DNA from: a virus | Strand: one strand, 5' to 3' | Length of the DNA: 51,494 bases | Virus record (IMG/VR): IMGVR_UViG_3300045988_113183 | Translations under genes and position numbers: made by a program | Notes under the pieces: generated by a model | The model's input: the letters and a program-made list of their open reading frames with translations, nothing else | Database searches by the model: none | Told to the model about the DNA's origin: nothing | Part shown: positions 1,987 through 48,909 of the stretch, one piece after another | Layout of the letters: the number at the start of each line of letters is the position of its first letter | Numbering within the stretch: the stretch's first letter is position 1

Positions 1987-2604
1987 ATGGACATTGTGAG
2001 TTTACGGCTTGATGAGCTGACCCCTTACGAAAACAACCCTCGACAGAATGATGCTGCCGTGGATGCCGTTGCCGCCTCTATCAAGCAGTTCGGCTTCAAA
2101 GTTCCCATCGTGGTGGATGCCAACAACGTCATCGTGGCCGGGCATACCCGTTTCAAAGCTGCTGCAAAGCTGGGCCTCGATACTGTGCCCTGTGTGGTAG
2201 CTGACGACCTGACCGAAGAGCAGGTCAAGGCATTCAGACTGGCAGATAACAAGGTCGGTGAGCTGGCCGAGTGGGATACCGAAAAGCTGTCTCAGGAGCT
2301 GGCCGGAATCCTCGATATTGACATGGAGCAGTTCGGCTTTAGCTCTGAGCTTGAAGAGCTGGGCGACGAGATGCTGGACAACCCCTATACCATGAAAACA
2401 AACATTCCGCAGTACGAGCCGACTGGAGAGTGTCCAAGCCTTGCAGATCTGTATGATACATCCAAAACGGATGAGTTGTTGGCTGAAATTGAAGAAGCTG
2501 ACCTGAATCCAGAAGAGAAGGGCTTTCTACTGCAAGCAGCCGGGCGACACACTGTTTTCAACTACCGCAAAATCGCAGAGTATTACGCCCATGCCTCCCC
2601 CTGA
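1987..2604 (+). CDS. ParB-like nuclease (ParB/Srx N-terminal) domain protein
   Basis: LDELTPYENNPRQN ... IVAGHTRFKAAAKLG ... FRLADNK is the typical ParBc motif set. The ORF stops at CCC-TGA (2599-2604). Confidence 0.8.
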   Translation: MDIVSLRLDELTPYENNPRQNDAAVDAVAASIKQFGFKVPIVVDANNVIVAGHTRFKAAAKLGLDTVPCVVADDLTEEQVKAFRLADNKVGELAEWDTEKLSQELAGILDIDMEQFGFSSELEELGDEMLDNPYTMKTNIPQYEPTGECPSLADLYDTSKTDELLAEIEEADLNPEEKGFLLQAAGRHTVFNYRKIAEYYAHASP

Positions 2605-2731
2605 GATGCAGGAGCTCATGGAAAAGTCTGCCCTTGTTATTATCGATGAGGGCGACGCTATCCGTAACGGTTTTGTATCTCTCTCCACTGTCGTTTCCGG
2701 CTTGATGGAAGAGGAGCAGAACGATGCGTGA
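2603..2731 (+). CDS. +1-frame continuation of the ParB-like ORF (EMQELMEKSALVIIDEGDAIRNGFVSLSTVVSGLMEEEQNDA), or a separate 42-46 codon ORF
   Basis: The frame is open from 2507. The sequence is protein-like. No RBS precedes its ATGs (2591, 2606). Its stop overlaps the GT start. Confidence 0.45.
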   Translation, partial: EMQELMEKSALVIIDEGDAIRNGFVSLSTVVSGLMEEEQNDA

Positions 2732-3605
2732 CGATTTTGCTGTGTTCATCCTGACCCACGGGAGAGCTGAGAAGGTCGTGACTGCTGAGACGCTCAAGCG
2801 CCAGAAGTATTCCGGCAAGGTCTATTTTATCATCGACAACGAAGATGATACCGCCGACCTGTACCGGGAGAAGTTTGGAGCCGAGAACGTCATCATGTTC
2901 GACAAGGCCGCTGCTGTGGCCCGTGCTGACACGATGGACAACATCTGTGAGCACCGTGCCATCCTGTATGCCCGCAACGAGAGCTTCCGTATCGCCCAAA
3001 AGCTGGGCCTGAAGTATTTTCTCATGCTGGACGATGATTACACAGACATCCTTGTGCGCTGGCCTGAGGGCAAAAAGCTCAAGGGAAAGAGCCTGACCGG
3101 CGAGAGACTGGACGGCCTGTTCGAGGCGATGCTGGATTTTCTCGATGCGTCTGGCGCTGCTATGGTAGCTCTGGCACAGGGCGGAGATATGATCGGCGGA
3201 GTTCACGGCGGCGGATATAAGATGGGCCTGAAGCGGAAGTGCATGAACAGCATGTTCTGCCGGGCTGATACCCCTGTCGAGTTCCGTGGAACTATGAACG
3301 AGGATGTCACGACCTACACCACCCTTGGCAGCCGCGGCGTTCTCTTTTTTACGTTTATGCGCTGTCAGGTGACGCAGATTCAGACGCAGAGCCTTTCCGG
3401 CGGTATGACTGAGGCGTACAAGGAGAGCGGGACTTACACCAAATCCTTCTACTCCGTCATGTCCATGCCCTCCTGCATCAAGGTGGGAGAGATGGGCGGA
3501 AGCCACCGCCGGATTCACCACTCTATCAATTGGGACTGCTGCGTCCCGAAGATTCTGAACGAAAAATACAGAAAGGAGCGAGAAGATGCAGAACATCGCA
3601 AGTGA
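2724..3605 (+). CDS. GT-A-like glycosyltransferase (DxD-type), possibly of the phage DNA-base glycosyltransferase (TET-associated GT-like) kind
   Basis: N-terminal beta-strand followed by HGR (FAVFILTHGR). YFIIDNEDD and FLMLDDDY acidic motifs. Start overlaps the upstream ORF and stop overlaps the radical-SAM start. Confidence 0.5.
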   Translation: MRDDFAVFILTHGRAEKVVTAETLKRQKYSGKVYFIIDNEDDTADLYREKFGAENVIMFDKAAAVARADTMDNICEHRAILYARNESFRIAQKLGLKYFLMLDDDYTDILVRWPEGKKLKGKSLTGERLDGLFEAMLDFLDASGAAMVALAQGGDMIGGVHGGGYKMGLKRKCMNSMFCRADTPVEFRGTMNEDVTTYTTLGSRGVLFFTFMRCQVTQIQTQSLSGGMTEAYKESGTYTKSFYSVMSMPSCIKVGEMGGSHRRIHHSINWDCCVPKILNEKYRKEREDAEHRK

Positions 3606-4545
3606 CAAGATGATGGCCCACATTGACCGCATTGCAGGAAACCGACTGCCTATCACGGCAGATATCTTCCTGAACAACTTCTGCAACAACCGCTGCCCCT
3701 ACTGCACATACGGACGTTGGGAGCTTGACCCTGACGCTCATGCCATGGCGTACGAGGATTTTGTACGCTACGCCATGAAGCTGCTGGAGCTGGGAGTCGA
3801 GGGCTTCATTCTCACCGGCGGCGGAGAGCCTACTATCTCCCCTGATTTTGACCGTATTACCGAGTGGCTGGATAAGAACGAGCTGCACTATGGAATCAAC
3901 ACCAACTTCAACGCTATTCGCTTTCCGAAGCCCGATTACCTGAAAGTCAGCCTTGACGGATGGGATGAGGACAGCTATGAGCAGCGCCGGGGCGTGAGAT
4001 GCTACAACAAGGTTGTGGACAATATCCGTGACTATGCTTTCTGGAAGCGCAAGCACAGCCCCAAAACGTCTTTGGGCATTCAGTGTGTTGTTTCCTCTGC
4101 CGATGATGTAAAGCGATTCTACGGGGCGAATAAGAGCCTCCCCGTGGATTATATCTCGTTCCGGCCCATTGAAAGCACCGCCGGGAAAGCCTATGATACT
4201 GGAACCGCCAAGGCACAGGCTCGTGAAGCTGTGGCTGCCATTAAAGCTCTGGCCGCTGCTGACCACCGTGTCGTCCTCAATTTCAAGTGGGAGATGCTGG
4301 ACTGGCAGGAGCCGACCTGTACCGCCTCGTGGGCACAGATTGCCCTGAACGAAAAGGGCGAGGTCATGTACTGCTGCCACAAGCCGTATCAGATCGTGGG
4401 CCACATCCTCGACCCTGATATTTTGGAGAAGAAAAACCGGGCCACCACCGACATGAGCGGGTGCGATATCCCCTGCCGGATGACTGGCCCAAACGCTGCT
4501 GTCCGTGAGCTGATGACCGAACGGAAAGACGCTTGCTTCATCTGA
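3586..4545 (+). CDS. Radical SAM enzyme with C-terminal Cys-rich (auxiliary-cluster-like) region
   Basis: CNNRCPYC (CX3CX2C) motif, ILTGGGEPT motif, and C-terminal CCHKP and GCDIPC cysteines. AGGAG RBS. Confidence 0.8.
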   Translation: MQNIASDKMMAHIDRIAGNRLPITADIFLNNFCNNRCPYCTYGRWELDPDAHAMAYEDFVRYAMKLLELGVEGFILTGGGEPTISPDFDRITEWLDKNELHYGINTNFNAIRFPKPDYLKVSLDGWDEDSYEQRRGVRCYNKVVDNIRDYAFWKRKHSPKTSLGIQCVVSSADDVKRFYGANKSLPVDYISFRPIESTAGKAYDTGTAKAQAREAVAAIKALAAADHRVVLNFKWEMLDWQEPTCTASWAQIALNEKGEVMYCCHKPYQIVGHILDPDILEKKNRATTDMSGCDIPCRMTGPNAAVRELMTERKDACFI

Positions 4546-4578
4546 GCCTCCCCAAACGAGAAAGAGAGAGGTGGTGAC

Positions 4579-5040
4579 GTGCCGAACGAGAAGAATCTGG
4601 TCTCGCTTGCTGACCGAACAACGAGCGAACAACGAGAGATCGCCCAGAAGGGCGGCGTTGCCTCCGGGGAAGCACGTCGCCGAAAAAGAACCTTGAAAGC
4701 TGCCACCAAAGCCCTACTCGAAACCCCGGTCAAGAGTAAAGAGCTGCAGCAGAAGATGGAGCTTCTCGGCGTGTCTGCTGAGGATGCGGACTACATGACA
4801 GCTGTGGCCGTGGCCATGGTCACACAGGCCATGAAGGGAAATGTCAAAGCTGCTGCCTTTTGCCGTGACCTTATCGGCGAGAATCCTGACAAGAAATATC
4901 GGGATGCCGAACTCAAGCTTGCCCGGGAGAAGTTCGAGCGGGAGAAAGTGGACGACAGCAGCAAATCCTCTCTGGCCGATACCATTCAAGGTGCATACGC
5001 CCGCCGGAAAGAGCAGGAGAAGAACGGAGGCGACGGATGA
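4579..5040 (+). CDS. terS: Terminase small subunit
   Basis: GTG start after a GAGGTGG RBS. KGNVKAAAFCRDLIGE motif is typical of P27-type small terminases. Lies directly upstream of terL. Confidence 0.75.
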   Translation: MPNEKNLVSLADRTTSEQREIAQKGGVASGEARRRKRTLKAATKALLETPVKSKELQQKMELLGVSAEDADYMTAVAVAMVTQAMKGNVKAAAFCRDLIGENPDKKYRDAELKLAREKFEREKVDDSSKSSLADTIQGAYARRKEQEKNGGDG

Positions 5041-6476
5041 TGGCCCTGAGCGACGAAGCGGTTCTGTATTATGCCGAGAACCCTGTGGACTTCACCGAAG
5101 ACATCATCCATGCCAAGCCTGATGCCAACCAGCGGGCCATTATGAACAGCGTCGCCCGGAACCAGATGACCTCTGTTCGCTCTGGACACGGTATCGGAAA
5201 GACCGCCGTGGAGAGCTGGCTCGTCATCTGGTTTTTGGCTACGAGGCCCTTTCCGAAAGTTCCCTGTACTGCCCCGACGCAGCACCAGCTTTGGGACATC
5301 TTGTGGTCTGAGATTGCAAAATGGCTGCGCTCAGACCCGTCCCTCGCCCGTGACCTGATTTGGACACGAGAAAAGGTCTACATGAGAGGCTACCCGGAAG
5401 AGTGGTTCGCTGTTGCCAGAACGGCCAGCAAGCCTGACGCTCTGCAGGGCTTCCATGCAGACCACATTCTTTACGTCATAGATGAGGCTTCTGGTGTCGA
5501 TGATAAAGTCTTCGAGCCTATCTTGGGCGCTATGTCCACCAAGGGCGCACGGCTCTTGATGTGCGGGAACCCGACCCGCATTACTGGATTTTTCTACGAC
5601 AGCCATCATAAGAGCCGCCCTTTGTACAACGCTATGCACGTTGACGGTCGAGACAGCTCCAGAGTTGACCAAGAGTTCATTGACCGCATCATTGATATGT
5701 TCGGGGAGGATTCCGACGTATTCCGGGTGCGTGTTGCCGGCGAGTTCCCGAAAGCTCTGCCTGACAGCTTCATCCCCATGGAGTGGGCAGAGAGGGCCAG
5801 CGAGGGAGAAGCACCTAAAATCGACCGTGTTCTGAGAGTGGACATCGGCACCGACGTGGCCCGGTATGGTGACGACAGCAGCGTGGTCTGTACTGTGCTT
5901 GACAAGCGCAGCCAGATGGAGCCTGAAGTTTACCACCATAACGACACTATGACGCTGTCCGGCAGGATGGTACAGACCATCAAGAGGTGCGCTGCTGCTC
6001 ATCCTTGGGCCTTTATCCGTGTCAAAATCGACTGCGATGGCTTGGGCGTGGGCGTGTTTGACCGTCTGACTGAGCTGAAACAAGAGATCGTGGACGAGGT
6101 AAATGCCCAGCGCGAAGAGCTGTACCGGGATGCCGAGGACGTGCCGCCTCCCCTTGACCTTGAAATCGTGGAGTGCCACTTCGGTGGAGAGGGTGGCAAG
6201 GTCGATGAGAAAGACCCCATCAACTACGCCAATTCCACTGGCCTTATGTGGGGCGCAATCCGGGAGGCCCTGAAAGCTCAGCGCCTCCACCTCTGGTATG
6301 ATGATAAACAAATCAGCCAGATCTCTAACCGTAAGTACAGCGTGAACAGCGCTGGCGAAATCGTCCTTGAGCGCAAGGAAGAAATGAAAAAGCGGGGCCT
6401 GTCCTCGCCTGATATGGCCGACGCTCTGGGCCTTGCCCTGCACGACCCGCTCGTGAGCGACTGGAGCCTTGACTGA
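5037..6476 (+). CDS. terL: Terminase large subunit
   Basis: Walker A-like SGHGIGKT, Walker B YVIDEASGV, and a C-terminal nuclease region. Confidence 0.9.
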   Translation: MMALSDEAVLYYAENPVDFTEDIIHAKPDANQRAIMNSVARNQMTSVRSGHGIGKTAVESWLVIWFLATRPFPKVPCTAPTQHQLWDILWSEIAKWLRSDPSLARDLIWTREKVYMRGYPEEWFAVARTASKPDALQGFHADHILYVIDEASGVDDKVFEPILGAMSTKGARLLMCGNPTRITGFFYDSHHKSRPLYNAMHVDGRDSSRVDQEFIDRIIDMFGEDSDVFRVRVAGEFPKALPDSFIPMEWAERASEGEAPKIDRVLRVDIGTDVARYGDDSSVVCTVLDKRSQMEPEVYHHNDTMTLSGRMVQTIKRCAAAHPWAFIRVKIDCDGLGVGVFDRLTELKQEIVDEVNAQREELYRDAEDVPPPLDLEIVECHFGGEGGKVDEKDPINYANSTGLMWGAIREALKAQRLHLWYDDKQISQISNRKYSVNSAGEIVLERKEEMKKRGLSSPDMADALGLALHDPLVSDWSLD

Positions 6477-6668: not shown

Positions 6669-8897
6669 ATGCCCCTCTTTTGGAGACGGCACGGAGAACA
6701 GGCCTCTTCCGCGTATATGAATGGCAGCGCTATGCTGCCCCGGTACACGAACCCGCCTGAGCGCAATACCGAAGATTGGATTAAGGCGTATACCACCAAT
6801 CCCCGGATGGCTGTCGTGTCCCGTATCGCGTCTGACCTGTCCTTTGCTGAGGGAAAGCTCTACCGGGTGGATAAAAACGGCGAGGAGCAAGAGCTGACGG
6901 CTCACCCTTTTCTCAATTTTTGGGAGAATCCGAACCCGTTGCACGAGTACACCAACGCTGCCCTGTGGAACCTCTTCGAGATTTACCTGAAGCTCAAGGG
7001 CGAGGGATATTTCGTCATTGAGAAGAACGCTCTCGGTGTCCCTGTTGAGTTGTGGCCTGTCCCTACTCACTGGGTACAGATGACCCCGTACATCGACCAT
7101 CCGTTCTATACCATCCGAACGACCGGCGGCCTCATTCTGGAGGTTTCTGTCGATGATATGTTCGTGATGAAAGACCTGAACCCGCTCGACCCATTCCGAC
7201 GTGGCATGGGCCAGGCAGAGCCTCTGGCTGACGAGATCGAAACAGATGAGTATGCGGCGAAGTTCCAGAAGCGGTTCTTCTTCAACGATGCCACCCCTAA
7301 CATCATCATCGGGATGCCTAAAAGCTCCGATGAGCAGCGCAAGCGGTTCCGGGCTGAGTGGATGGAGAAGTTCAGGGGCGTTTTCAACAGCCACGGCGTA
7401 GCGACTGTGAACGGCGAGGTCACCATCAACAAGGTCGGTGACAGCATGAAGGACATGGACATGGTGAATGGCCGCACCTTCCTGCGTGACGCTGTGCTGG
7501 AGCATTTTGGCGTTCCTCGTGAAATTATGGGCATTACTGAGAGCAGCAACCGGGCAACCTCGGAAGCTGCTCAGTTTATCTACGCTCAGAACGTCTTGAT
7601 GCCCAACCTGAAGCGCCGAGAACAGGCTATCAACCGCCAGCTCATCCCTCTGTTTGGAAACGACATCATCTGGCACTACGAAGATATCATCCCCCGAAAT
7701 CAGGAGTTCGACAAATCCGTGGGCACTGACGGCTGGAACGCTGGCCTGCTGACACGGAACGAAGCTCGTGAAAAACTGGGGATGCCGCCTGTCAAGAACG
7801 GCGATGTCTACAAGACACAGTTCTCTGACATCTACGTTGGAGAGGATGACGACCCCGTTGCTGTCAGTGCTGCCGCTGCTAACCTCCAGTTCGAGGATGA
7901 GGCAGACCCGCTGGAAACGGGCTCAGGCGATGATATTGAAGTCACTGATAAAGGAACACTCCCGGAGGACGAAAACGACGCTGAGAGTGCCGCAGATTCG
8001 TCTGGCGGCTTTGAAATCGTGGTTTCTAAATCTCTGAGCGGCCATGAGCGAAAGAGCGCCCAGCTTCAGGCGGCCCAACGAGCTATTGCTCAGGCTGAAC
8101 GGGAGCAGGGCCAGAAGTTCGAGATTGCTGCCATGAAATACTTCCGGCAGCAGGGCCGCCTTATCGAGAATGCCATGAACGGCACCGAAAAGGCAGAACG
8201 CAGCGCATGGGATATCCTCATGGCCGGTATTCCCGGATATGATGGACTTGCAGGAGATGAGAGCCAGAGCGCCAATGCTTCCGCATGGAATGCCCTCAGT
8301 GACGAGAACCGCACCGCCCTGCTGTCTGGATTCACCACCGGCCTTATCGACTGGCGCAGCGAGGAAACTGCCCTGCTGAACATCTTCGAGCCGCTATGGA
8401 AAGAAAGCTATAACAAGGGAGCTGGCGTGTCTGCCAAGCTCTATGGGCTGGAAAGCCTCAAGCGCCCTGAGCTGATTTCCACGGCCAAGCTCCGTGGCGG
8501 CGCTCGTGTCGTTGGTATTACGCAGACCACCAAAGATGCCATTTCCCGTATCGTCTCTGCTGCTCTGGAGCACGGAGATGGAAGGGAGAGCATCGCCAAG
8601 CAGATTCAGCAGGAGATGCAGACATCCACAACCCGCGCCCGCACCATTGCAAGCCAAGAGTGCAACACCAGCCTCCTCTCCGGCCAGTATGATATGATGC
8701 GTACCGCGGGAGCTGGCTACAAGACGTGGCACGTCACCAACCCTGCTGTTGCCCGGCCCTCGCATAAGGCCCTGAATGGACAGACCGTCCCCATCGATGC
8801 GAAGTTCGCCAATGGCTTGATGCAGCCTTGCGACCCCAACTGCGACGATGCTTCTGAGGTCGTAAATTGCCACTGTTTCCTGACGTTCAGTAAGTAG
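6669..8897 (+). CDS. Portal protein fused to a C-terminal Mu-F/SPP1 gp7-like minor head protein domain
   Basis: N-terminal ~450 aa are portal-like. An acidic linker follows. The C-terminus (TRARTIASQE ... WHVTNPAVARPSHKALNGQ ... VVNCHCFL) matches the Mu F head-morphogenesis motif pattern. Confidence 0.75.
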   Translation: MPLFWRRHGEQASSAYMNGSAMLPRYTNPPERNTEDWIKAYTTNPRMAVVSRIASDLSFAEGKLYRVDKNGEEQELTAHPFLNFWENPNPLHEYTNAALWNLFEIYLKLKGEGYFVIEKNALGVPVELWPVPTHWVQMTPYIDHPFYTIRTTGGLILEVSVDDMFVMKDLNPLDPFRRGMGQAEPLADEIETDEYAAKFQKRFFFNDATPNIIIGMPKSSDEQRKRFRAEWMEKFRGVFNSHGVATVNGEVTINKVGDSMKDMDMVNGRTFLRDAVLEHFGVPREIMGITESSNRATSEAAQFIYAQNVLMPNLKRREQAINRQLIPLFGNDIIWHYEDIIPRNQEFDKSVGTDGWNAGLLTRNEAREKLGMPPVKNGDVYKTQFSDIYVGEDDDPVAVSAAAANLQFEDEADPLETGSGDDIEVTDKGTLPEDENDAESAADSSGGFEIVVSKSLSGHERKSAQLQAAQRAIAQAEREQGQKFEIAAMKYFRQQGRLIENAMNGTEKAERSAWDILMAGIPGYDGLAGDESQSANASAWNALSDENRTALLSGFTTGLIDWRSEETALLNIFEPLWKESYNKGAGVSAKLYGLESLKRPELISTAKLRGGARVVGITQTTKDAISRIVSAALEHGDGRESIAKQIQQEMQTSTTRARTIASQECNTSLLSGQYDMMRTAGAGYKTWHVTNPAVARPSHKALNGQTVPIDAKFANGLMQPCDPNCDDASEVVNCHCFLTFSK

Positions 8898-23675: not shown

Positions 23676-24971
23676 ATGTCCAAATACCAAGACGGCAATT
23701 ACGGCACTCTGGCTGGCATTGCCCTTATCGGCAAAGTGCTGGCCGGGCGCTGCACCCTGAAGTACACCAAGGCTACTGTCGGCAAGGGCAGTATCCCTGA
23801 CGGTAAGACACCCAAAACCATGGACGGCTCTGCTGAGTATGTTATGGATGTTCCCATCTCTGGCATTACCAACCCCGTGGACGGTGAATGTCAGGTATCC
23901 GTGCAAATCAGCAGCGCCAGCGTCACCACCGGCTTTTATTGCACCAATGTTGTGCTGTATGCCCAAGACCCTGATTCGGGAGAAATCCCCTTCACTTACC
24001 TTGTGATGGAGAACGAACCTGAATGGATTCATCCTTCGTCCTCTTCTGTCGGCAAACTGGCCGCCATTGACCTTATCTCGGCGGTTGGTGACGTAGACCA
24101 TGTGGAGGCAACCATCGACGAAGATACCATTGCCACTGTGGCCGTGGTAAATCAGGCTGTGAATGACCTGAAGAACAAAACCCTTCCGCTTGCTGGTGGC
24201 ACATTGACTGGCCCTCTGATTCTGGCAGACGGCTACAATGCCTATGGTGTTGCCAGCAATGCTGCTGCGCACAATGCTATGCCGCCCCGCTTTAAGAATC
24301 TCGGCACAGCGGCAACCTCTGACATCCACGCGGCTATCAAGGCTGGCACATTCGACGATATCTTTGTCGGCGATTATTTTATGGTGGGTGACAACCCGAT
24401 TTACATCGGTGCCCTCGACTGGTACCTGAACTGCGGCGACACGAGCTGCACCGAGCATCATGCCCTGCTCGTACCCGGTAACAATCTGTACACCTACCAC
24501 ATGAATGCCACCAATACGACTGAGGGCGGTTACGTTGGCAGTGATATGTATAAGAACGGTCTGACGCAGGCAAAGCAGTTTTTCAGCGACGCGTTCGGGG
24601 CGGCCCATATTTTGTCCCATCGGCAGTATCTGGTGAACGCTGTTTCTGGCGGCAAGCCTACTGGAACGGACTGGTTCGACAGCACGGTGGAGCTGATGAA
24701 TGAAAACATGGTTTATGGCGGGCGGCAATTCTCGCCCATGCCGGACGGCGCAACTGAACCGTGGAGCACCTGCAGGAACTACACCATCGATAAGGGCCAA
24801 ATTCCTTTGTTCCAGTATGCCCCGTGGCTGATTTGCAACCGTAACTGGTACTGGCTGCGAGACGTGGTCTCGGCGGCCAGTTTTGCCAATGTCGGCGACG
24901 GCGGCTATGCGGACTGCGGCGGCGCTTCCGACGTCGCTGGCGTTCGGCCTGTCGCCGGTCTGATCGGTTAA
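23676..24971 (+). CDS. Tail fibre protein; C-terminal lectin-fold-like variable domain is DGR target 1
   Basis: Tail-collar-like N-terminus. The C-terminus (WYWLRDVVSAASFANVGDGGYADCGGASDVAGVRPVAGLIG) contains VR1. Confidence 0.85.
   Translation: MSKYQDGNYGTLAGIALIGKVLAGRCTLKYTKATVGKGSIPDGKTPKTMDGSAEYVMDVPISGITNPVDGECQVSVQISSASVTTGFYCTNVVLYAQDPDSGEIPFTYLVMENEPEWIHPSSSSVGKLAAIDLISAVGDVDHVEATIDEDTIATVAVVNQAVNDLKNKTLPLAGGTLTGPLILADGYNAYGVASNAAAHNAMPPRFKNLGTAATSDIHAAIKAGTFDDIFVGDYFMVGDNPIYIGALDWYLNCGDTSCTEHHALLVPGNNLYTYHMNATNTTEGGYVGSDMYKNGLTQAKQFFSDAFGAAHILSHRQYLVNAVSGGKPTGTDWFDSTVELMNENMVYGGRQFSPMPDGATEPWSTCRNYTIDKGQIPLFQYAPWLICNRNWYWLRDVVSAASFANVGDGGYADCGGASDVAGVRPVAGLIG
24863..24961 (+). repeat. 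DGR variable repeat VR1
   Basis: 99-nt gapless alignment to TR. All 16 differences are at TR adenines. Confidence 0.9.
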
Positions 24972-24977
24972 TCGAAC

Positions 24978-25002
24978 ATCCTGCGGGCCTGTACCGCAGG
25001 AT
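24978..25002 (+). promoter_or_regulatory. Hairpin 17 nt downstream of VR1 (candidate DGR target-recognition element)
   Basis: 9-bp stem ATCCTGCGG/CCGCAGGAT with loop GCCTGTA. Confidence 0.6.
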
Positions 25003-25026
25003 TGAGATAGAAAGAAGGTGAAAGCG

Positions 25027-25575
25027 ATGTCCATCCCGAAGCATGAACGTTCCCCTTCCAGACTGGAAGCGCAGCATCTTGCCCGGAAAATCAGCTTGGA
25101 AATAACGTCCGAGCTTGCGAGGACGTTCGGCTACAGCAAGGCAAAATTTGAGAAGCACGTCGAAACTATGACGAAATACCTACCTCCCGGCCCGGACAGG
25201 GAATCTGCTGCACAGCAGATTCGGGAGCAGGAACAGGGATTCAACTTGTGGCTGATTGAGCAGGAACGCCGGAGAATGCTTGACTTATCACGCGAAATCC
25301 CACTCCATCTTCGTGCGGCAAATTCCATTTGGCCCAGTTGCCAGATGGAGCTTGATGCACGAAGGCTGGAGCTTGACCGCGCCGTTGCTGCCTGCTGGAA
25401 ATTGCAGGACGAACTCCAGTATATTGCTGAAGCTCTTCCGGCTGATTTCAACAAATATACCGGCCTTGCCTTGGAAATTGACAAGCTCGTTTCGTATATT
25501 AAAAATTTACGAAAATCCGACAGCAAGAGATTCAAGGCTGCTTCCGAAAACAAATCCGCAAAAAGTACGAAATAA
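25027..25575 (+). CDS. avd: Avd-like accessory variability determinant (helical bundle protein)
   Basis: Basic, helical ORF between the target gene and TR, which is the canonical Avd position. At 183 aa it is longer than a typical Avd. Confidence 0.6.
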   Translation: MSIPKHERSPSRLEAQHLARKISLEITSELARTFGYSKAKFEKHVETMTKYLPPGPDRESAAQQIREQEQGFNLWLIEQERRRMLDLSREIPLHLRAANSIWPSCQMELDARRLELDRAVAACWKLQDELQYIAEALPADFNKYTGLALEIDKLVSYIKNLRKSDSKRFKAASENKSAKSTK

Positions 25576-25598
25576 TAAACAATTGGGCATCCTTTGTT

Positions 25599-25697
25599 CG
25601 TGGTCTCGACGGCCAATTTTGCCAATGTCAACGACAACGGCAATGCGAACTACAACAACGCTTCCAACGTCAATGGCGTTCGGCCTGTCGCCGGTCT
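25599..25697 (+). repeat. DGR template repeat (TR)
   Basis: Non-coding copy containing 23 adenines, mostly in AAC/AAT triplets. In the VR frame it reads VVSTANFANVNDNGNANYNNASNVNGVRPVAGL. Confidence 0.9.
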
Positions 25698-25860
25698 CTG
25701 ATTTCGCAACTGTACATAAAAGGATTGGTTCCGAGTACAGCTCTGCGAAAGGAAAGGCTGTCCATTCATGGAGATTCCATGATAAACGCCCCTTGAGGGC
25801 ATCAACGGCGATGTTCCCGGTTACGACCGATGGAGCTATCACGCTGTTTTTTCTTTTGCT

Positions 25861-27093
25861 ATGACAAAATTGACCGATGCAAATGTGCTGTATGATGCAG
25901 GATTTAAGGCAATGAAGCCTTCTTACTACAAATACGGCACTCAACTGTATGAAATGAACCATCTTCTCGAAACGGCAAGGCTTCAGAAAGCTTTCCTTGA
26001 GGGGAGCTACGAGCCGCAACCCGGCGTTAAATTTGAGATTAAGGAAAGAGGGCACGAAAGGTATATCACCAGCACTGAGACCGCTGACAAGGCGGTTTCT
26101 CATATCATCTGTGATGAGTATCATACGCCCCTGCTGGGCCGGTATCTCCAGTATGATAACTCGGCCAGCCAGAAAGGCAAAGGCGTTGCTTTTCACCGTC
26201 ACCGATTTAAGGTTCACCTGCGGCAGTATTATGAGCGTGAAGGAACGAACGAGGGCTTTATTTTATTCTCGGACTTCAGCGGGTATTATGCCAACATTCT
26301 GCATGAGGTAACGCTTTCCCGGCTGGAAAAGTATCTCACGAAAGAGATACCCGACCGTGTGGAGCTTGCTCAGGTGTTGGATGTCCTGCGTAAAACCTTC
26401 AAGAGCTATGAGCTGGACGTATCTCGGTTCTCGGATTCTGAAATCGAGCAGATGTACCGAGAAAAAATCAGCTCCACTTTTAATGTCGGCGTACCGTCCT
26501 CCGTCCTGACCGGCGAAAAGATGCTGCGCAAGGGAGTTGATATCGGCAATCAGATCTCTCAGAACGTTGGCATCTTCCTGCCCGTCCCTCTGGATAACTA
26601 TGTCAAAATCGTCTGTGGTATCAAGGGATACGCCCGATATTCAGATGACTTTTATGCCATTGCCCGGACAAAGGAAGAGCTACACGAGGTTATGGATGGG
26701 GTACGCCGGGAAGCCGCTGCACTGGGCCTTATCATCAACGAAAAGAAAACCCGTATCTGCAAACTTGGCAGCCAGTACCGCCACCTGCAGATGCTCTATT
26801 CCCTGAAGCCTGACGGCGAGATTACCTGCAAAATTAACCCAAAGTCTATCACTCGTGAGCGCCGGAAACTGAAAGCATACAAAAGGCTGCTGGATGCTGG
26901 CCGGATGGAGTATGCCGAAATCGAGAACAATTTTAAGTCGTGGATTTGCACCTACTATCGGTTCATGTCCCTGCTGCAAATCCAAAACATGATTGCTCTG
27001 TACAAGGAGCTATTCGGAAAGGATATCACATGGAAAAAGTCACGAGGACATGGTCGGTTACGCTGGCTGATGGCACAGCCATTGAAAACCTGA
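25861..27093 (+). CDS. DGR reverse transcriptase
   Basis: DIGNQISQ (the DGR-type IGxxxSQ motif) and GYARYSDDF (YxDD box). Lies ~160 nt downstream of TR. Confidence 0.9.
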   Translation: MTKLTDANVLYDAGFKAMKPSYYKYGTQLYEMNHLLETARLQKAFLEGSYEPQPGVKFEIKERGHERYITSTETADKAVSHIICDEYHTPLLGRYLQYDNSASQKGKGVAFHRHRFKVHLRQYYEREGTNEGFILFSDFSGYYANILHEVTLSRLEKYLTKEIPDRVELAQVLDVLRKTFKSYELDVSRFSDSEIEQMYREKISSTFNVGVPSSVLTGEKMLRKGVDIGNQISQNVGIFLPVPLDNYVKIVCGIKGYARYSDDFYAIARTKEELHEVMDGVRREAAALGLIINEKKTRICKLGSQYRHLQMLYSLKPDGEITCKINPKSITRERRKLKAYKRLLDAGRMEYAEIENNFKSWICTYYRFMSLLQIQNMIALYKELFGKDITWKKSRGHGRLRWLMAQPLKT

Positions 27094-29488: not shown

Positions 29489-30625
29489 TCACCCGTGGGC
29501 CTTCTTGATGGCCTCTGTGGTAGCATCTGCCAGCTCTGCCCTCTGGCCCTGCATCTCGTGCTGGTATACTCCGAACGTGTCCATGTTCTTGCTGTGGCCC
29601 ACGAGCATCTTCAACTGCCCCTCTGTGAGCTGCCCGGCCTCCATGCTGACAAAAGTGTGCCGCAGCTCATATAGGGTGATTCTGGGTGATATGCCGTTTG
29701 TGTCCTGATACTTTTCCCACCGGCGGGCAAGTGACCTCTGACAGGGTATCTGGAACAACGTCGTGTTATAGTTGAGCTGGACACCCTGAGCCTTCAAGAG
29801 CTGCACCTGCGCCTCGTATGCTTCTCTGGCCTGCTGGCACATATCAAAAGACCTGACGCTGTTCTCGTTCTTGCCTGTTGTCTCCTCGTCCAGTGTGTTG
29901 ATGCTGCGCCGGAGGTTGACCGTATTGCCCTTGATGTCACCGTACCAGAGGCCGACCAGCTCACCGGGCCGGACACCGGTAGACACGGCGAAACGGTAGG
30001 CATAAATGTAGTCATCGAAAATTCGCTTCGTGTGCCAGAGGCGCGTGTCCACCGAAAACAGGATTCTCAGCGCGTTGGGCTGGAGTATCTTCCGCTTGCC
30101 TGTTCTGGCCCCCTTCGGGATGCTCAACTCAGGGTTCAGGGTGGTGTACTTGTTTCGGCGGCACCAGCGCAGAAAGCTGTTGGAGGTGGAGCGAATGGTC
30201 ATAAGTGTTTTCTTGCTGAGGGGCTTGTCGCCGGTTTTCATCACCTTCCGCTTTGCCAGGCACCTCTTTTTGTACGACATATCAATGGCCTTCTGGAGAT
30301 CGCCCTCGGTCAGCTCTTCAATTCTGAGATTTCCGACCACCGGGAGGATATAATAATCGCCGTACTTCCGGCACTGCATCACATAAGATGTCCCGGCTGA
30401 AAGGGCCACATCTTCCACCCACTCATCGTATAGAGCTGATACCTTCTTTCGGCCATCCCTGACGCTATCATCCAACCACGCATCTGCTTTGGCGTTTGCT
30501 TCTCTCTGGCCAGTTCTGCCCGGCGTGTTGCTGTAAAAGCATTTTTGCGTTCCATTCTTCTGGACTTTGATTCGCCAGCGTCCCTCGGCCTCTTTCCACG
30601 TTGCGGTTCCCGTTCTCTTTTTCAC
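29489..30625 (-). CDS. int: Tyrosine integrase
   Basis: Arm-binding-type N-terminus (WKEAEGRWRIKV). C-terminal LRHTFVS ... GHSKNMDTFGVYQH catalytic region. Confidence 0.9.
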   Translation of the reverse strand: MKKRTGTATWKEAEGRWRIKVQKNGTQKCFYSNTPGRTGQREANAKADAWLDDSVRDGRKKVSALYDEWVEDVALSAGTSYVMQCRKYGDYYILPVVGNLRIEELTEGDLQKAIDMSYKKRCLAKRKVMKTGDKPLSKKTLMTIRSTSNSFLRWCRRNKYTTLNPELSIPKGARTGKRKILQPNALRILFSVDTRLWHTKRIFDDYIYAYRFAVSTGVRPGELVGLWYGDIKGNTVNLRRSINTLDEETTGKNENSVRSFDMCQQAREAYEAQVQLLKAQGVQLNYNTTLFQIPCQRSLARRWEKYQDTNGISPRITLYELRHTFVSMEAGQLTEGQLKMLVGHSKNMDTFGVYQHEMQGQRAELADATTEAIKKAHG

Positions 30626-35232: not shown

Positions 35233-35285
35233 AAATAAGCGTCCCTGCGTTAGGGACCACTTGAATTTTGAAGGGAGATTTTTAC

Positions 35286-35894
35286 ATGAACGGTATGTTT
35301 TTTCGCGGTGAGGTTTATTATGTTCTGCCTACTGGCAAGGAGGCTGGATGCGAGCAGCACGGTGGCCGCCCGGCTGTCATCGTGAGCAATAACCAGAACA
35401 ACAAGAACTCCTCCACTCTGGAGATCGTTTACCTGACAACTCAGGAAAAGAAGCCTCTTCCCACTCATGTTCATATCAATGCTGCTGGGAAGCTGAAAGA
35501 ATCCACGGCCATCTGCGAGCAGGTGCTCACTGTGGACAAAACCCGGATGGATGAGTATATTGGGGTGCTGTGTGACAAGGAGATGCGGGACATCGAGTTT
35601 GGCCTGATGGTCAGTCTTGGTCTCGACAACTACCTCTCCAAGCCGAAAGAAGTTCCCGGAAGCGACATCACTATTGGCTCTGTGGCCGTTTCCATTCCAT
35701 CGCCGGTTCCCTCTGCCAATAGTTTTGCTGAAGTTGCTGCATCGAAAGTGGCCGAGAATACCCCCGTTCAGGCTCCAGCCTCTGCACCTTCTGTTCCCGG
35801 CAGAAGCTTTGAAAAAGAGTTCATCTCAGCTTGCGCACAGCGTGATGTTTACCGGGAGCTGTGCATGAAGATGATCGAGCAGCGGAGGGCGTGA
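35286..35894 (+). CDS. MazF/PemK-like toxin domain with ~95-aa C-terminal extension
   Basis: GEVYYV ... EQHGGRPAVIVSNN ... LTTQEKKPLPTHV ... EQVLTVDKTR is the PemK-type motif pattern. The extension is P/S/A-rich and ends in a helical tail. Confidence 0.7.
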   Translation: MNGMFFRGEVYYVLPTGKEAGCEQHGGRPAVIVSNNQNNKNSSTLEIVYLTTQEKKPLPTHVHINAAGKLKESTAICEQVLTVDKTRMDEYIGVLCDKEMRDIEFGLMVSLGLDNYLSKPKEVPGSDITIGSVAVSIPSPVPSANSFAEVAASKVAENTPVQAPASAPSVPGRSFEKEFISACAQRDVYRELCMKMIEQRRA

Positions 35895-44886: not shown

Positions 44887-45534
44887 AAGTTCTGATAGCT
44901 TGCGAGGAGAGTCAAGAGGTTTGCAAGGCTTTCCGAGCACGAGGACACGAGGCGTACTCCTGCGATATTCAGGAGCCGTCCGGCGGACACCCTGAATGGC
45001 ACATCCTCGGCGATGCTTTGTTGCCCCTGAGGGGGGGGGCAAGTCGAGACGATGGATGATAAAGGGCATTATATCGATGCTTGGGACTTGCTCATTGCAC
45101 ACCCGCCTTGCACATACCTGAGCAATGCCGGAGCACGGCATCTCTGGAAAGGGCACCAGCTTCAAGCTGACCGCGTGATGTTGGGCATTCAGGGCCGCGA
45201 CCTGTTTATGCGGTTCTGGTGGGCAGATGTTCCGAGAATCTGCGTGGAAAATCCCGTGCCGAGTAAGGTTTTCTGCCTACCGCCGTATACGCAAGCTGTG
45301 CAACCGTATGAGTATGGACACCCATACAGCAAGAAAACTTGCCTTTGGCTGAAGGCTCTGCCACCACTATTCCCAACCGACATTGTGGAGCCTGTGGCTA
45401 CATGGTGCCCGTCCGGCTCTTACGCACATAAGCATGATGAGCGCAACAAGGGTATGTTTACCACCGACCGCGCTAAAAATCGAGCAAAAACATTCCCCGG
45501 AATTGCGAAAGCTATGTCTGAGCAGTGGGGATAA
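44883..45534 (+). pseudogene. C5-cytosine-methyltransferase-like gene split by a G9 homopolymer frameshift (ORFs 44883-45059 and 45052-45534)
   Basis: The N-terminal part (VKVLIACEESQEVCKAFRARGHEAYSCD ... GDALLPLRGG) ends in the G-run. The downstream frame has WDLLIAHPPCTYLS and ICVENP. A G8 tract would fuse them in frame. Confidence 0.6.
45031..45039 (+). repeat. Poly-G tract (G9)
   Basis: Counted directly: positions 45031-45039 are all G. Confidence 0.95.
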
Positions 45535-46136: not shown

Positions 46137-46442
46137 ATGGACAGAATTTTTTGTACAAGGCTCAAGGCTGCCCGCACTGCTGCTGGCCTGAGCCAGAGAG
46201 AGCTTGCGTACAGGGTGGGAACCGACCAGAATGTCGTGGCCCTGTACGAGAGCGGCGGGACAACGCCGGGGATTGAGGGCATCCGGCGCTTTGCTGAGGC
46301 GCTGAATGTACCGGCCTCTTACCTTGTTGACCGCACCCCGCCCAACTTTGTGGCGGTTTGCCCCTGCTGCGGGGTACAGCTTAAAATTGACGGAGGGAGG
46401 GTTTACCATGGATTACAGGGAGTTTCTGGAGCGGAAAATTGA
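46137..46442 (+). CDS. XRE-family HTH regulator with C-terminal CxxC
   Basis: LKAARTAAGLSQRELAYRVGTDQNVVALYESG is HTH_3-like. Confidence 0.7.
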   Translation: MDRIFCTRLKAARTAAGLSQRELAYRVGTDQNVVALYESGGTTPGIEGIRRFAEALNVPASYLVDRTPPNFVAVCPCCGVQLKIDGGRVYHGLQGVSGAEN

Positions 46443-48909
46443 CATCGCACCCATGTCTGGCATCGAGGTTGACCCTTCCGAGGTCAATCCTGTGCTGAAA
46501 GACCACCAGCGCGTCAGCGTCCTGTGGGCACTGAGAGGCGGCCGCCGTGGTATCTTTGCCCGGTTTGGTCTGGGAAAGACCGTCATGCAGCTCGAATGGT
46601 GCCGCCTCCTGCAGAAGCATGAAGGCGGCCAAACCCTGATCGTTATGCCCCTGAACGTCATGCCGGAATTTCGGGCAGACGCAGTAAACTTGCTGGGGAT
46701 GCAGGAGCCGCCCTATTGCCGCACCATGGCCGAGGTCAAGGCCAGCGACGCGCCGATCATCCTCACCAACTACGAAAGAGTAAGAGACGGCGATATCGAC
46801 CCGCACTACTTCACGGCCGTCAGCTTGGACGAAGCGGCCACCCTGCGAAGCTTCGGGAGCAAGACGTACCAGAGCTTTATGCTCAAGTTCAAGGGCATTC
46901 CCTACAAGCTGACGAACACCGCCACCCCGTCCCCGAACAGGTACAAAGAGCTGATTCACTATGCCGGTTTTCTGGAGGTTATGGACACCGGCCAGGCGCT
47001 GACCCGATTTTTCAAACGGGATTCCACCAAGGCCAACAACCTGACCTTGTACCCGGGCCGGGAGCGTGAATTTTGGATTTGGTGCGCCAGCTGGGGCTTG
47101 TTCCTCCAGAAGCCTTCTGACCTTGGCTTTTCGGATGAGGGGTACGCCCTGCCCCCGATGGACATCCGATACCACAAGCTCAATAGCCTTGACCGCCCTG
47201 CGGAGTTTGAGGCTGACGGCCAGATGAAGCTTGGTCATGATGCAGCGATGGGGCTGTCTGATGCCGCCAAAGAGAAGCGAGACAGTATTGACATCCGTGC
47301 TGCTGAGGTGGCCCGCATCATTGCCGAAGCTCCCACCGATGAGCACTTCGTGGTCTGGCACGACCTCGAAGATGAGCGCAAGGCCCTCAAAAAGGCTGTG
47401 CCTGAGCTGGTGGACATCTACGGCAGCATGGAGCTGGAGGCCCGTGAACAGCGTGTCATGGACTTCGCTCAGGGCCGAACCCGAATCTTTGGGACAAAAA
47501 AGAGCCTGTCCGGCTCTGGATGTAATTTTCAACGATTCTGCCACCGAGCCATCTTCATGGGCGTTGACTATGAGTTTAACGATTTCATTCAGGCCATCCA
47601 CAGAATCTACCGCTTCCTGCAGAAGTCCCCGGTTGTCATCGATATCCTGTACATGGACACCGAAACCGAGGTGCTTCTGGCTCTCAAGAGAAAGTGGCGG
47701 CAGTACGATGAGCTGAGCGAGAAGATGGAAGAGATCATCAAGGAATACGGCCTCGGCAGCCTTGCTCTGGAGGCCCTGAAACGAACGATAGGATGTGAGC
47801 GTGTGGAAGTCAAGGGAAATAATTATGTGGCCATCAACAACGACTGCGTGGAGGAGGTGCGGAGCTGGCCGACAGACAGCATCGACCTGTATGTGACCTC
47901 TATTCCGTTCGGCAATCACTATGAGTACAGCCCCAGCTACAACGACTTCGGGCACAACCCGAATGACAATGAGTTTTTCAAGCAGATGGATTTCCTCACC
48001 CCTGAGCTGCTGCGGACTCTGAAGCCGGGACGGGTGGCTGCAATCCACGTCAAAGACCGGGTCGAGTTCGCCAATGTCACCGGGTTGGCCGCTCCCACCA
48101 TCGAACCGTTCCATGCTGACTGCATCGCCCACTTCCGCAAGCATGGCTTTGCCTATTTCGGAATGATTACGGTGGTCACTGACGTTGTTCGGGAGAACAA
48201 CCAGACGTATAGGTTGGGATGGACAGAGCAGTGCAAGGACGGCACAAAGATGGGCGTTGGATGCCCTGAGTACATCTTGCTGTTCCGCAAGCTGCCCACC
48301 GACTGCAGCCGCGGCTATGCTGATGTGCCGGTGAAAAAGTCCAAAGAGGACTACACCCGGGCGCAGTGGCAGATTGATGCCCATGCTTTCTGGCGCTCTA
48401 GCGGCGACCGGCCTTTTACCCGGGAAGAACTGGAGAAGATACCCACCTCGAAGTTGCAGGCGGTCTACCGCAAATTCAGCCGTGATACCGTCTATTCTTA
48501 CGCCGAGCACGTTAAGCTGGCCGAAAGTCTGGATAAAGACGGGCGGCTGCCTTCCACCTTCATGGTTGTCGCCCCGGGAAGCTGGGACATGACGGTCTGG
48601 GATGACATCGTGCGGATGCGCACCCTGAATACCTCCCAGAGCCAGCGGCGGCAGAACCTTCATGTCTGTCCCCTTCAGCTGGATATTGTCCAGCGCCTGA
48701 TTGAGCGGTATAGCAACGAGGGCGAGCTGGTAGCTGACCCCTTTGCAGGGCTGTTCACTGTGCCCTATGAGGCCGTGAAGCTGGGCCGCCGCGGCAAGGG
48801 CGTGGAACTGAACCCCGACTATTTCCGGGACGGCGTGGGATATCTGGAAACTGCCGACGCTGAACGGGATGCCCCGACGCTGTTTGACCTGCTGGAGACT
48901 GGAGCGTGA
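46408..48909 (+). CDS. Fusion of an SF2 (SNF2/DEAD-like) helicase and an N6/N4 DNA methyltransferase
   Basis: Walker A FGLGKT and SLDEA box. Methylase half: DLYVTSIPF (a variant of the S/D-PP-Y/F motif) and VADPFAGLFTV ... GVELNPDYF (SAM-binding motif region). Confidence 0.75.
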   Translation: MDYREFLERKIDIAPMSGIEVDPSEVNPVLKDHQRVSVLWALRGGRRGIFARFGLGKTVMQLEWCRLLQKHEGGQTLIVMPLNVMPEFRADAVNLLGMQEPPYCRTMAEVKASDAPIILTNYERVRDGDIDPHYFTAVSLDEAATLRSFGSKTYQSFMLKFKGIPYKLTNTATPSPNRYKELIHYAGFLEVMDTGQALTRFFKRDSTKANNLTLYPGREREFWIWCASWGLFLQKPSDLGFSDEGYALPPMDIRYHKLNSLDRPAEFEADGQMKLGHDAAMGLSDAAKEKRDSIDIRAAEVARIIAEAPTDEHFVVWHDLEDERKALKKAVPELVDIYGSMELEAREQRVMDFAQGRTRIFGTKKSLSGSGCNFQRFCHRAIFMGVDYEFNDFIQAIHRIYRFLQKSPVVIDILYMDTETEVLLALKRKWRQYDELSEKMEEIIKEYGLGSLALEALKRTIGCERVEVKGNNYVAINNDCVEEVRSWPTDSIDLYVTSIPFGNHYEYSPSYNDFGHNPNDNEFFKQMDFLTPELLRTLKPGRVAAIHVKDRVEFANVTGLAAPTIEPFHADCIAHFRKHGFAYFGMITVVTDVVRENNQTYRLGWTEQCKDGTKMGVGCPEYILLFRKLPTDCSRGYADVPVKKSKEDYTRAQWQIDAHAFWRSSGDRPFTREELEKIPTSKLQAVYRKFSRDTVYSYAEHVKLAESLDKDGRLPSTFMVVAPGSWDMTVWDDIVRMRTLNTSQSQRRQNLHVCPLQLDIVQRLIERYSNEGELVADPFAGLFTVPYEAVKLGRRGKGVELNPDYFRDGVGYLETADAERDAPTLFDLLETGA

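Follow-up and report, generated by a model that had tools for sequence, protein, structure and literature searches.

Known systems

The closest described systems are the ParB-dependent 5mYOX pathways of phages (O'Toole et al., PNAS 2026, PMC13229309), in which a ParB-like protein, composed of a nucleotide-binding domain and a C-terminal domain with no DNA-binding domain, activates a DNA-base enzyme on double-stranded DNA; the commonest neighbors of this ParB-dependent enzyme are glycosyltransferase (GT), ParB and terminase genes. We examined the genome represented by IMG/VR record IMGVR_UViG_3300045988_113183 (51.5 kb; this whole stretch of 51,494 nucleotides is called the window below). An initial annotation had marked in it three adjacent genes, for a ParB-like protein, a GT and a radical S-adenosylmethionine (radical-SAM) enzyme, as a candidate DNA-modification module, arguing among other things that ParB-like proteins are recurrent components of hypermodification systems; they have since been tied experimentally to phage base hypermodification (PMC13229309). 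The module is genuine and conserved. Tentatively, we read the trio as a late-expressed, post-replicative DNA-glycosylation module with oxygen-free radical tailoring of the sugar, which it quite possibly is.

To our knowledge, all described routes to DNA-linked sugars depend either on 5mYOX enzymes, which require oxygen, or on hydroxymethylases that act before replication. The GT of the trio belongs to the TAGT (TET-associated glycosyltransferase) family, which includes the T6-type second glucosyltransferase acting on DNA (PMC13390438). GT-A phage GTs glycosylate 5-hydroxymethylcytosine (5hmC) in DNA; ~65% of phage GT-containing contigs lack any partner for base modification, and DNA was considered a less likely target for these (bioRxiv 10.1101/2023.12.21.572611).

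The trio shares with the 5mYOX pathways (PMC13229309) a neighboring GT, a position on the terminase side and a post-replicative logic. From its sequence, its ParB-like protein may also have the same plan, a nucleotide-binding domain plus a C-terminal region and no recognizable DNA-binding domain. Unlike those pathways, neither this genome nor the recurrent neighbor families of the module include a 5mYOX, TET or JBP gene, and a twitch-type radical-SAM gene is found instead; furthermore, ParB is coupled here (and in some relatives fused) to the GT, not to an oxidase. The GT resembles the T6-type beta-glucosyl-HMC-alpha-glucosyltransferase (HMC, hydroxymethylcytosine) and the 5mYOX-associated GTs in Pfam and PHROG membership and in DxD-type motifs, and the tandem GT paralogs of relatives point to di- or oligosaccharides like those of known DNA glycans. 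However, known TAGT and GT-A DNA GTs use hydroxymethyl-pyrimidines supplied by ThyA-like or TET-like enzymes, and the clade of the window GT has neither nearby.

The radical-SAM enzyme is like BtrN, DesII, BlsE and the NeoN/HygY type in its CX3CX2C and CX9-15GX4C twitch motif, its further cysteines and its coupling to sugar enzymes. Unlike an established member of these twitch/SPASM sugar enzymes, it shares only ~15% identity with them and reaches no curated subfamily; their substrates are antibiotic precursors, whereas here the substrate would be a DNA- or nucleotide-linked sugar. M6/ViI-type thymidine hypermodification (PMC8989533), likened here by description, also places a radical-SAM enzyme in post-replicative phage DNA hypermodification, but those pathways use pre-replicative 5-hydroxymethyldeoxyuridine (5-hmdU), a 5-HMUDK kinase and amino-acid:DNA transferases, with no GT, and the kinase and transferases are absent here.

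The known kind to which the module would belong is therefore phage post-replicative DNA glycosylation with ParB; new would be the dedicated twitch radical-SAM partner, the lack of an oxidase and the strictly anaerobic hosts. Our literature searches found no report of a TET-associated glycosyltransferase combined with a radical-SAM partner. Phage post-replicative sugar hypermodification is a young field, for which the module is a good test case: three compact genes, present on hundreds of contigs from phages of human and animal gut anaerobes, with no known acceptor-making enzyme. It bears on the substrates of 'orphan' phage DNA-type GTs, on the part played by ParB, and on whether radical chemistry diversifies DNA glycans, or replaces TET, in an oxygen-free setting. 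Whether by sugar tailoring or as a TET surrogate, the result would be a new DNA modification, relevant to how phages evade restriction and CRISPR, to artefacts when gut viromes are sequenced, and to enzyme tools.

The gene trio and its conservation

The module lies between the replication genes and terS, the gene for the small terminase subunit. Its features are:

1987-2604, + strand: ParB-like protein, N-terminal 205 codons, the frame being broken at the end of this open reading frame (ORF)
2591-2731, + strand: 46-codon ORF, the displaced C-terminal segment of ParB
2597-2601, + strand: C5 run with one nucleotide inserted compared with intact relatives; the window reads GCCTCCCCCTGAG
2724-3605, + strand: GT-A glycosyltransferase of the TAGT family, 293 amino acids (aa)
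3586-4545, + strand: twitch-type radical-SAM enzyme, 319 aa

The gene coordinates in the initial annotation are correct, as are the two overlaps, of 8 nt at the GT start (2724-2731) and of 20 nt between the GT and radical-SAM genes (3586-3605).

We found 669 cluster representatives of the radical-SAM protein in a large protein collection at E<=1e-5, and IMG/VR has relatives on 293 contigs. The family itself is small and well bounded, with 45 representatives at E<=1e-30, after which scores drop to ~90 bits. Architectures (rSAM, radical-SAM gene) were counted in 64 non-redundant IMG/VR loci, of which 60 were informative:

ParB-GT-rSAM: 39 loci
ParB-GT-GT-rSAM: 13 loci
ParB-rSAM-GT: 4 loci
Other architectures with extra GTs: 2 loci
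No GT in view: 2 loci
Too little flank to judge: 4 loci

The radical-SAM gene adjoins a TAGT gene in 58 of the 60 informative loci, a recurrence that puts the adjacency of the trio beyond chance. Of 58 TAGTs adjoining the radical-SAM gene, 54 form one clade, the four exceptions being the loci with the alternative gene order. Terminase and portal families differ among the trio loci while the position of the module is unchanged, and the order ParB-rSAM-TAGT-terS-terL (terL, large terminase subunit gene) is kept in members at 33–35% radical-SAM identity. The trio is a conserved mobile module. Genome contigs place it in Blautia, other Clostridia, Lachnospiraceae, Muriventricola and Phascolarctobacterium, all strict anaerobes, in agreement with the earlier proposal of an anaerobe-infecting phage. 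Strains with a trio-bearing prophage include Blautia sp. MSJ-19, Muriventricola aceti H5_61 and Clostridium sp. OF09-36.

The radical-SAM family has GT partners outside the phage trio as well. At L007 the gene is paired with a divergent TAGT-like GT (15% identical), and on two cellular contigs (L176, 9025-10954; L185, 877-2717) a homolog overlaps or adjoins a GT8 gene. These GT8-paired homologs are 47–62% identical to the phage enzyme and occur without ParB; the L176 pair adjoins GDP-heptose pathway and nucleoside triphosphate (NTP)-transferase genes. The three nearest outgroups, at 28–31% identity, were inspected. P0404 is surrounded by GT2/GT9 genes; P0412 belongs to a polysaccharide cluster that also encodes a Wzx-type flippase, a deacetylase and GTs; and P0406 adjoins a gene for a TylF-type sugar O-methyltransferase, no GT being visible there. 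More distantly, phage MW202801 has a 26%-identical radical-SAM gene together with two GTs and NodB. The constant partner of the family is a glycosyltransferase, whether TAGT, divergent TAGT-like or GT8. An apparent fusion of TAGT with the radical-SAM protein (P0359) was rejected as evidence; its junction (..SLSGG directly followed by GGEPT..) deletes the CX3CX2C motif, marking it as a deletion chimera or assembly artefact.

The TAGT family is wider than the trio. Our TAGT search reached at least 584 IMG/VR contigs, and in at least about 290 of the 584 ParB-TAGT occurs with neither a radical-SAM gene nor a recurrent oxidase; some of these contigs are from the same gut dataset, others from phages of aerobes. 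GTs 48–56% identical to that of the window are immediately preceded by ParB and immediately followed by terminase genes, and have no radical-SAM gene with them. The ParB-TAGT pair is also present in cultured phages of E. coli, Lactobacillus, Nocardia and Haloarcula. In Escherichia phage vB_EcoS-683R6 (L089, 4604-7933) it falls directly after trkG and before terS; this layout resembles trkG-ynaK-ydaY of the Rac prophage, whose ydaY pseudogene may then be a TAGT remnant.

Single ORFs encode ParB::TAGT fusions at L006 (6382-8013, 543 aa) and L117 (522 aa). Arrays of GT paralogs with no radical-SAM gene include ParB followed by five TAGT genes (L132, 3428-8852), ParB-GT-ParB-GT (L151, 6412-8852), and ParB followed by two GTs (L146, 6731-8849); such arrays suggest either that oligosaccharides are built or that there are several specificities, for sequence or for acceptor. 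A P-loop (GxxxxGKT) domain is fused to the TAGT N-terminus in L020-22 (L020, 8583-10004) and L140 (7443-8834), and some relatives have a P-loop protein between ParB and GT, for which no Pfam, PHROG or PDB match was found. Relatives that lack the radical-SAM gene have tailoring genes in the place following the GT: second to fifth TAGTs, the P-loop::TAGT and, in some, an epimerase of the short-chain dehydrogenase/reductase (SDR) type. The core is ParB-TAGT, and the radical-SAM gene is an add-on.

Sequence and fold of the proteins

The GT matches Pfam PF20691 (TAGT) at 5.6e-44 (151 bits vs. a cut-off of 27.5), with residues 5-222 covering profile positions 1-201 of 205, and phrog_842 at 3.6e-68; the suspected relationship to TET-associated GTs is thus well above the family cut-off. 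Both acidic DxD-type motifs reported for it, IIDNEDD and LMLDDDY, are in the translation, and alignment of 10 diverse GT homologs shows DDD at 103-105 and NED at 192-194 to be invariant.

The radical-SAM protein matches Pfam PF04055 at 3.2e-12 (47.4 bits vs. a cut-off of 29.5). It has the CNNRCPYC (CX3CX2C at C33/C37/C40) and GGGEP (78-82) motifs and the extra C-terminal cysteine cluster that had been described, the last with cysteines at 245, 263, 264, 293 and 297. Invariant in an alignment of 32 sequences are C33/C37/C40, G78-G79-G80-E81, the twitch motif C245-x12-G258-x4-C263, C264 and C293-x3-C297. The twitch cysteines are kept also in the 33–35% identical relatives and in outgroup P0404. 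This arrangement, CX12GX4C plus CX3C, is that of the sugar dehydrogenase BtrN. No NCBIfam subfamily model reaches its cut-off for this protein, the twitch/SPASM model NF033640 scoring 39.4 bits vs. 170. The AlphaFold2 (AF2) model of the protein (pLDDT 88.5) has DesII, SuiB, SkfB, anSME, BlsE and viperins as its top solved folds in Foldseek, all at TM-scores of ~0.6, and a BFVD fold search with the same model found nothing closer than 17% identity. Of these solved folds, DesII, BlsE and viperin are sugar-acting, whereas SuiB, SkfB and anSME are SPASM/twitch enzymes that modify peptides or proteins. PADLOC pVip matches are weak (3e-6) and lie over the core; such matches may be the source of the 'annotated viperins' reported near phage GTs (bioRxiv 10.1101/2023.12.21.572611).

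The ParB-like protein has the ParB-CTPase fold, matching Pfam ParB_N (PF02195; 3.3e-9, 37.1 bits vs. a cut-off of 26.3) and phrog_620 (1.6e-58). Its GHTR sequence, a GxxR nucleotide-binding motif, is invariant in the aligned homologs. Residues 1 to ~95 are confidently modeled by AF2 for the intact homolog P0223, and the C-terminal half has pLDDT <60 in many blocks; Foldseek matches this model to the nucleotide-binding domains of KorB, ParB and Noc (E ~2e-6). There was no match to a helix-turn-helix domain, with Pfam detecting ParB_N alone and the C-terminal half modeled at low confidence. The family is very acidic, with a median isoelectric point (pI) of 4.5.

In this window ParB is split by an apparent extra C in the run at 2597-2601. 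Across the same junction the P0224 protein reads AHASPEMQELM, and intact 249-aa ParB is found in L088, a 96%-identical relative, and in P0223 (99% identical). The 46-codon ORF aligns to the C-termini of P0223-P0340, and in relatives where both segments match adjacently in tblastn it is in frame with ParB. The initial annotation described an extension of ParB overlapping the GT start and considered this ORF as a source of a small modified peptide. The overlap stands, but the extension is the frameshifted C-terminus of ParB itself, and the ORF was accordingly rejected as a precursor of a ribosomally synthesized and post-translationally modified peptide (RiPP) or other peptide. The window has two homopolymer frameshifts, in this C5 run and in a G9 tract at 45031-45039, both within DNA-modification genes.

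The missing acceptor enzyme

Pfam search of every window ORF of useful size found neither a TET/JBP domain nor a ThyA-like hydroxymethylase, and nucleotide-sugar genes are likewise absent, so that the absence of a TET/JBP enzyme or hydroxymethylase, first suggested from reading the sequence, extends over the whole genome. Nor was PF12851 (TET_JBP) found in the 36 neighbor families that recur at more than one of the radical-SAM loci. The only match related to thymidylate synthase was to the ThyX-type Pfam family Thy1, in one family at two radical-SAM loci (L080, L081).

Upstream of the module, L081 has a ThyX-like fragment (3804-4475, fam281), L031 a DUF5131 protein (1367-2182, fam116; Gp37/Gp68-like, with a CxxxCxxC motif), and L077 a protein like phosphoadenosine phosphosulfate (PAPS) reductase (4094-5044, fam275). 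These are possibly other DNA-modification genes.

The window also has a gene for a C5-methyltransferase (MTase)-like protein, which the initial annotation had listed among the modification enzymes of the genome:

44883-45534, + strand: C5-MTase-like gene, with PPCTYLS and ENP motifs; phrog_757 at 1.6e-55 for the intact L088 copy

The gene is present, but it is frameshifted here at the G9 tract, where the aligned L088 sequence has G8, and only 3 of 88 loci have it alongside the trio; it was therefore rejected as a conserved component of the pathway. Close relatives L088 and L011 have the gene intact (216 aa). The frameshift could be slipped-strand phase variation or a homopolymer sequencing error.

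Proposed function and its alternatives

In the function we propose, the ParB-like NTP-binding protein would help the TAGT to act on double-stranded phage DNA before packaging. This helper role on DNA, late in infection, is assigned by analogy with the activator ParB and from the ParB::TAGT fusions; ParB and GT are also translationally coupled. Using a nucleotide-sugar of the host as donor, the GT would glycosylate the DNA. The radical-SAM enzyme would abstract hydrogen from the transferred sugar, either on the nucleotide-sugar donor or when DNA-linked, and an auxiliary [4Fe-4S] cluster would, as in twitch sugar enzymes, support its oxygen-independent dehydrogenation, epimerization, dehydration or decarboxylation. 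The DNA would thus come to carry an unusual glycan, missed by host nucleases and by sugar-recognizing restriction systems. Tailoring of the sugar or its donor is the most economical inference because the radical-SAM gene tracks GTs rather than DNA partners, and because its relatives are in glycan loci. The radical-SAM gene overlaps the GT gene and appears to have co-evolved with it.

Several points weigh against this proposal. No acceptor-generating enzyme was found in the whole genome, so that what points to DNA as the target is family membership and linkage to ParB. Characterized 5mYOX-associated phage GTs need a hydroxymethyl pyrimidine, and the T6-type TAGT uses a hydroxymethylcytosine-linked sugar. 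The fold likeness of the radical-SAM protein is generic (TM ~0.6), peptide-modifying SPASM enzymes scoring as high as sugar enzymes, and the median pI of its family, a mildly acidic 5.9, is uninformative on sugar vs. DNA as substrate. Finally, ParB is frameshifted here; the module may be inactive in this phage, or the inserted C could be a homopolymer sequencing error.

The alternative that fares best is a module without a DNA target, which we consider unlikely. The GT and radical-SAM enzyme would glycosylate and tailor a protein (of the virion, the terminase, or ParB), an envelope polymer or a small nucleotide-linked molecule, and ParB would be an NTP-binding regulator. The lack of an acceptor-making enzyme speaks for this, as do the cellular glycan loci in which radical-SAM relatives work and the placement of the distant radical-SAM/GT cluster of MW202801 among structural genes. 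It is also consistent with the ~65% of phage GT contigs that have no base-modification partner (bioRxiv 10.1101/2023.12.21.572611), and with ParB-fold proteins, which bind a range of NTPs and also serve in roles unrelated to DNA (PMC12704722). However, the GT exceeds the TAGT cut-off by a wide margin, and characterized TAGT members act on DNA. Both the fixed location, after the replication genes and before terS, and the ParB::TAGT fusions resemble what is seen for DNA-modification enzymes, for example ParB-methyltransferase fusions. Pfam assigned no membrane or secretion family to either the GT or the radical-SAM protein, although no signal-peptide or transmembrane prediction was made.

Decidedly unlikely, in our judgment, is that the radical-SAM enzyme is an oxygen-independent replacement for TET/JBP, creating the DNA acceptor as the initial annotation had supposed. 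It would abstract hydrogen from the C5-methyl of thymine or 5-methylcytosine in DNA, the auxiliary cluster would oxidize the radical, and addition of water would give 5-hydroxymethyluracil (5hmU) or 5hmC, which the TAGT would glycosylate with the assistance of ParB. Spore photoproduct lyase offers a precedent, performing radical-SAM chemistry at the thymine methyl in DNA. No 5mYOX or hydroxymethylase is found anywhere in the genome, no oxidase family recurs near the radical-SAM loci, and all identified hosts are strict anaerobes, where Fe(II)/2-oxoglutarate (Fe/2OG) dioxygenases cannot work; an auxiliary cluster would suit a two-electron oxidation. Moreover, known modules combine ParB, 5mYOX and GT beside the terminase (PMC13229309), and the radical-SAM enzyme is the sole unexplained enzyme here.

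What disfavors a TET surrogate is the distribution of the genes. The ParB-TAGT core is common in contigs with neither a radical-SAM gene nor a recurrent oxidase, at least about half of those reached by the TAGT search, so the missing acceptor is not specific to the radical-SAM phages. The 47–62%-identical homologs have GT8 as their partner, in cellular loci lacking ParB, and each of the three inspected outgroups is surrounded by sugar-modifying genes, which for two of them form a glycosyltransferase or polysaccharide cluster. To a fixed ParB-GT core, extra GTs and the radical-SAM gene behave as add-ons in a subset of loci. The constant partner of the enzyme, again, is a GT. Less probable still is the specific version in which the radical-SAM enzyme would be an anaerobic counterpart of TET/JBP, assisted by ParB, making the TAGT acceptor for a 'base J-like' glycosylated thymine.

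A viperin-like nucleotide-modifying enzyme independent of the GT, for example one making a chain-terminating or signaling nucleotide for counter-defense, would suit the weak pVip matches, the viperins among the fold neighbors and the viperin annotations near phage GTs, but is very improbable given a score of 20.8 bits vs. a cut-off of 180 for the viperin family NF038283, the overlap and apparent co-evolution of the gene with the GT gene, and the invariance here of a twitch auxiliary-cluster motif that viperins are not known to have.

Surroundings of the module

The window looks like a complete temperate phage genome with a contractile-tail baseplate. Pfam and PHROG scans identified further phage genes, for RecT, SSB, RecU, portal, protease, capsid, baseplate J, holin and endolysin. 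As first annotated, a promoter/terminator unit precedes the ParB start codon (ATG at 1987). These and other features of the window are:

1624-1652, + strand: putative promoter-like site, from a consensus scan
1704-1817, + strand: 37-codon ORF, from the ORF list
1935-1958, + strand: putative terminator-like hairpin, ending the unit (1624-1958) directly 5′ of the ParB ATG
4579-5040, + strand: terS (phrog_2412), directly 3′ of the module
5037-6476, + strand: terL (phrog_5902/phrog_2)
6669-8897, + strand: portal
29489-30625, − strand: integrase
46306-48909: fusion of a helicase with an N6/N4 DNA methyltransferase, 867 aa

Upstream of the promoter-like site is tRNA-Trp (1497-1572), preceded by a second, tRNA-like match to Rfam (1282-1415). 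The latter spans 134 nt over the whole 71-position model, hence contains an insertion of ~60 nt; it scores 35.7 bits vs. a gathering score of 29, and was not called by ARAGORN. A 208-aa protein with a MazF/PemK-like toxin domain is encoded at 35268-35894.

A diversity-generating retroelement occupies 23676-27093. It consists of a tail-fibre-like ORF (23676-24971) with the variable repeat at its 3′ end (24863-24961), a template repeat (25599-25697) and a reverse transcriptase gene (25861-27093). The two repeats are 84% identical, and every mismatch between them falls at a template adenine.

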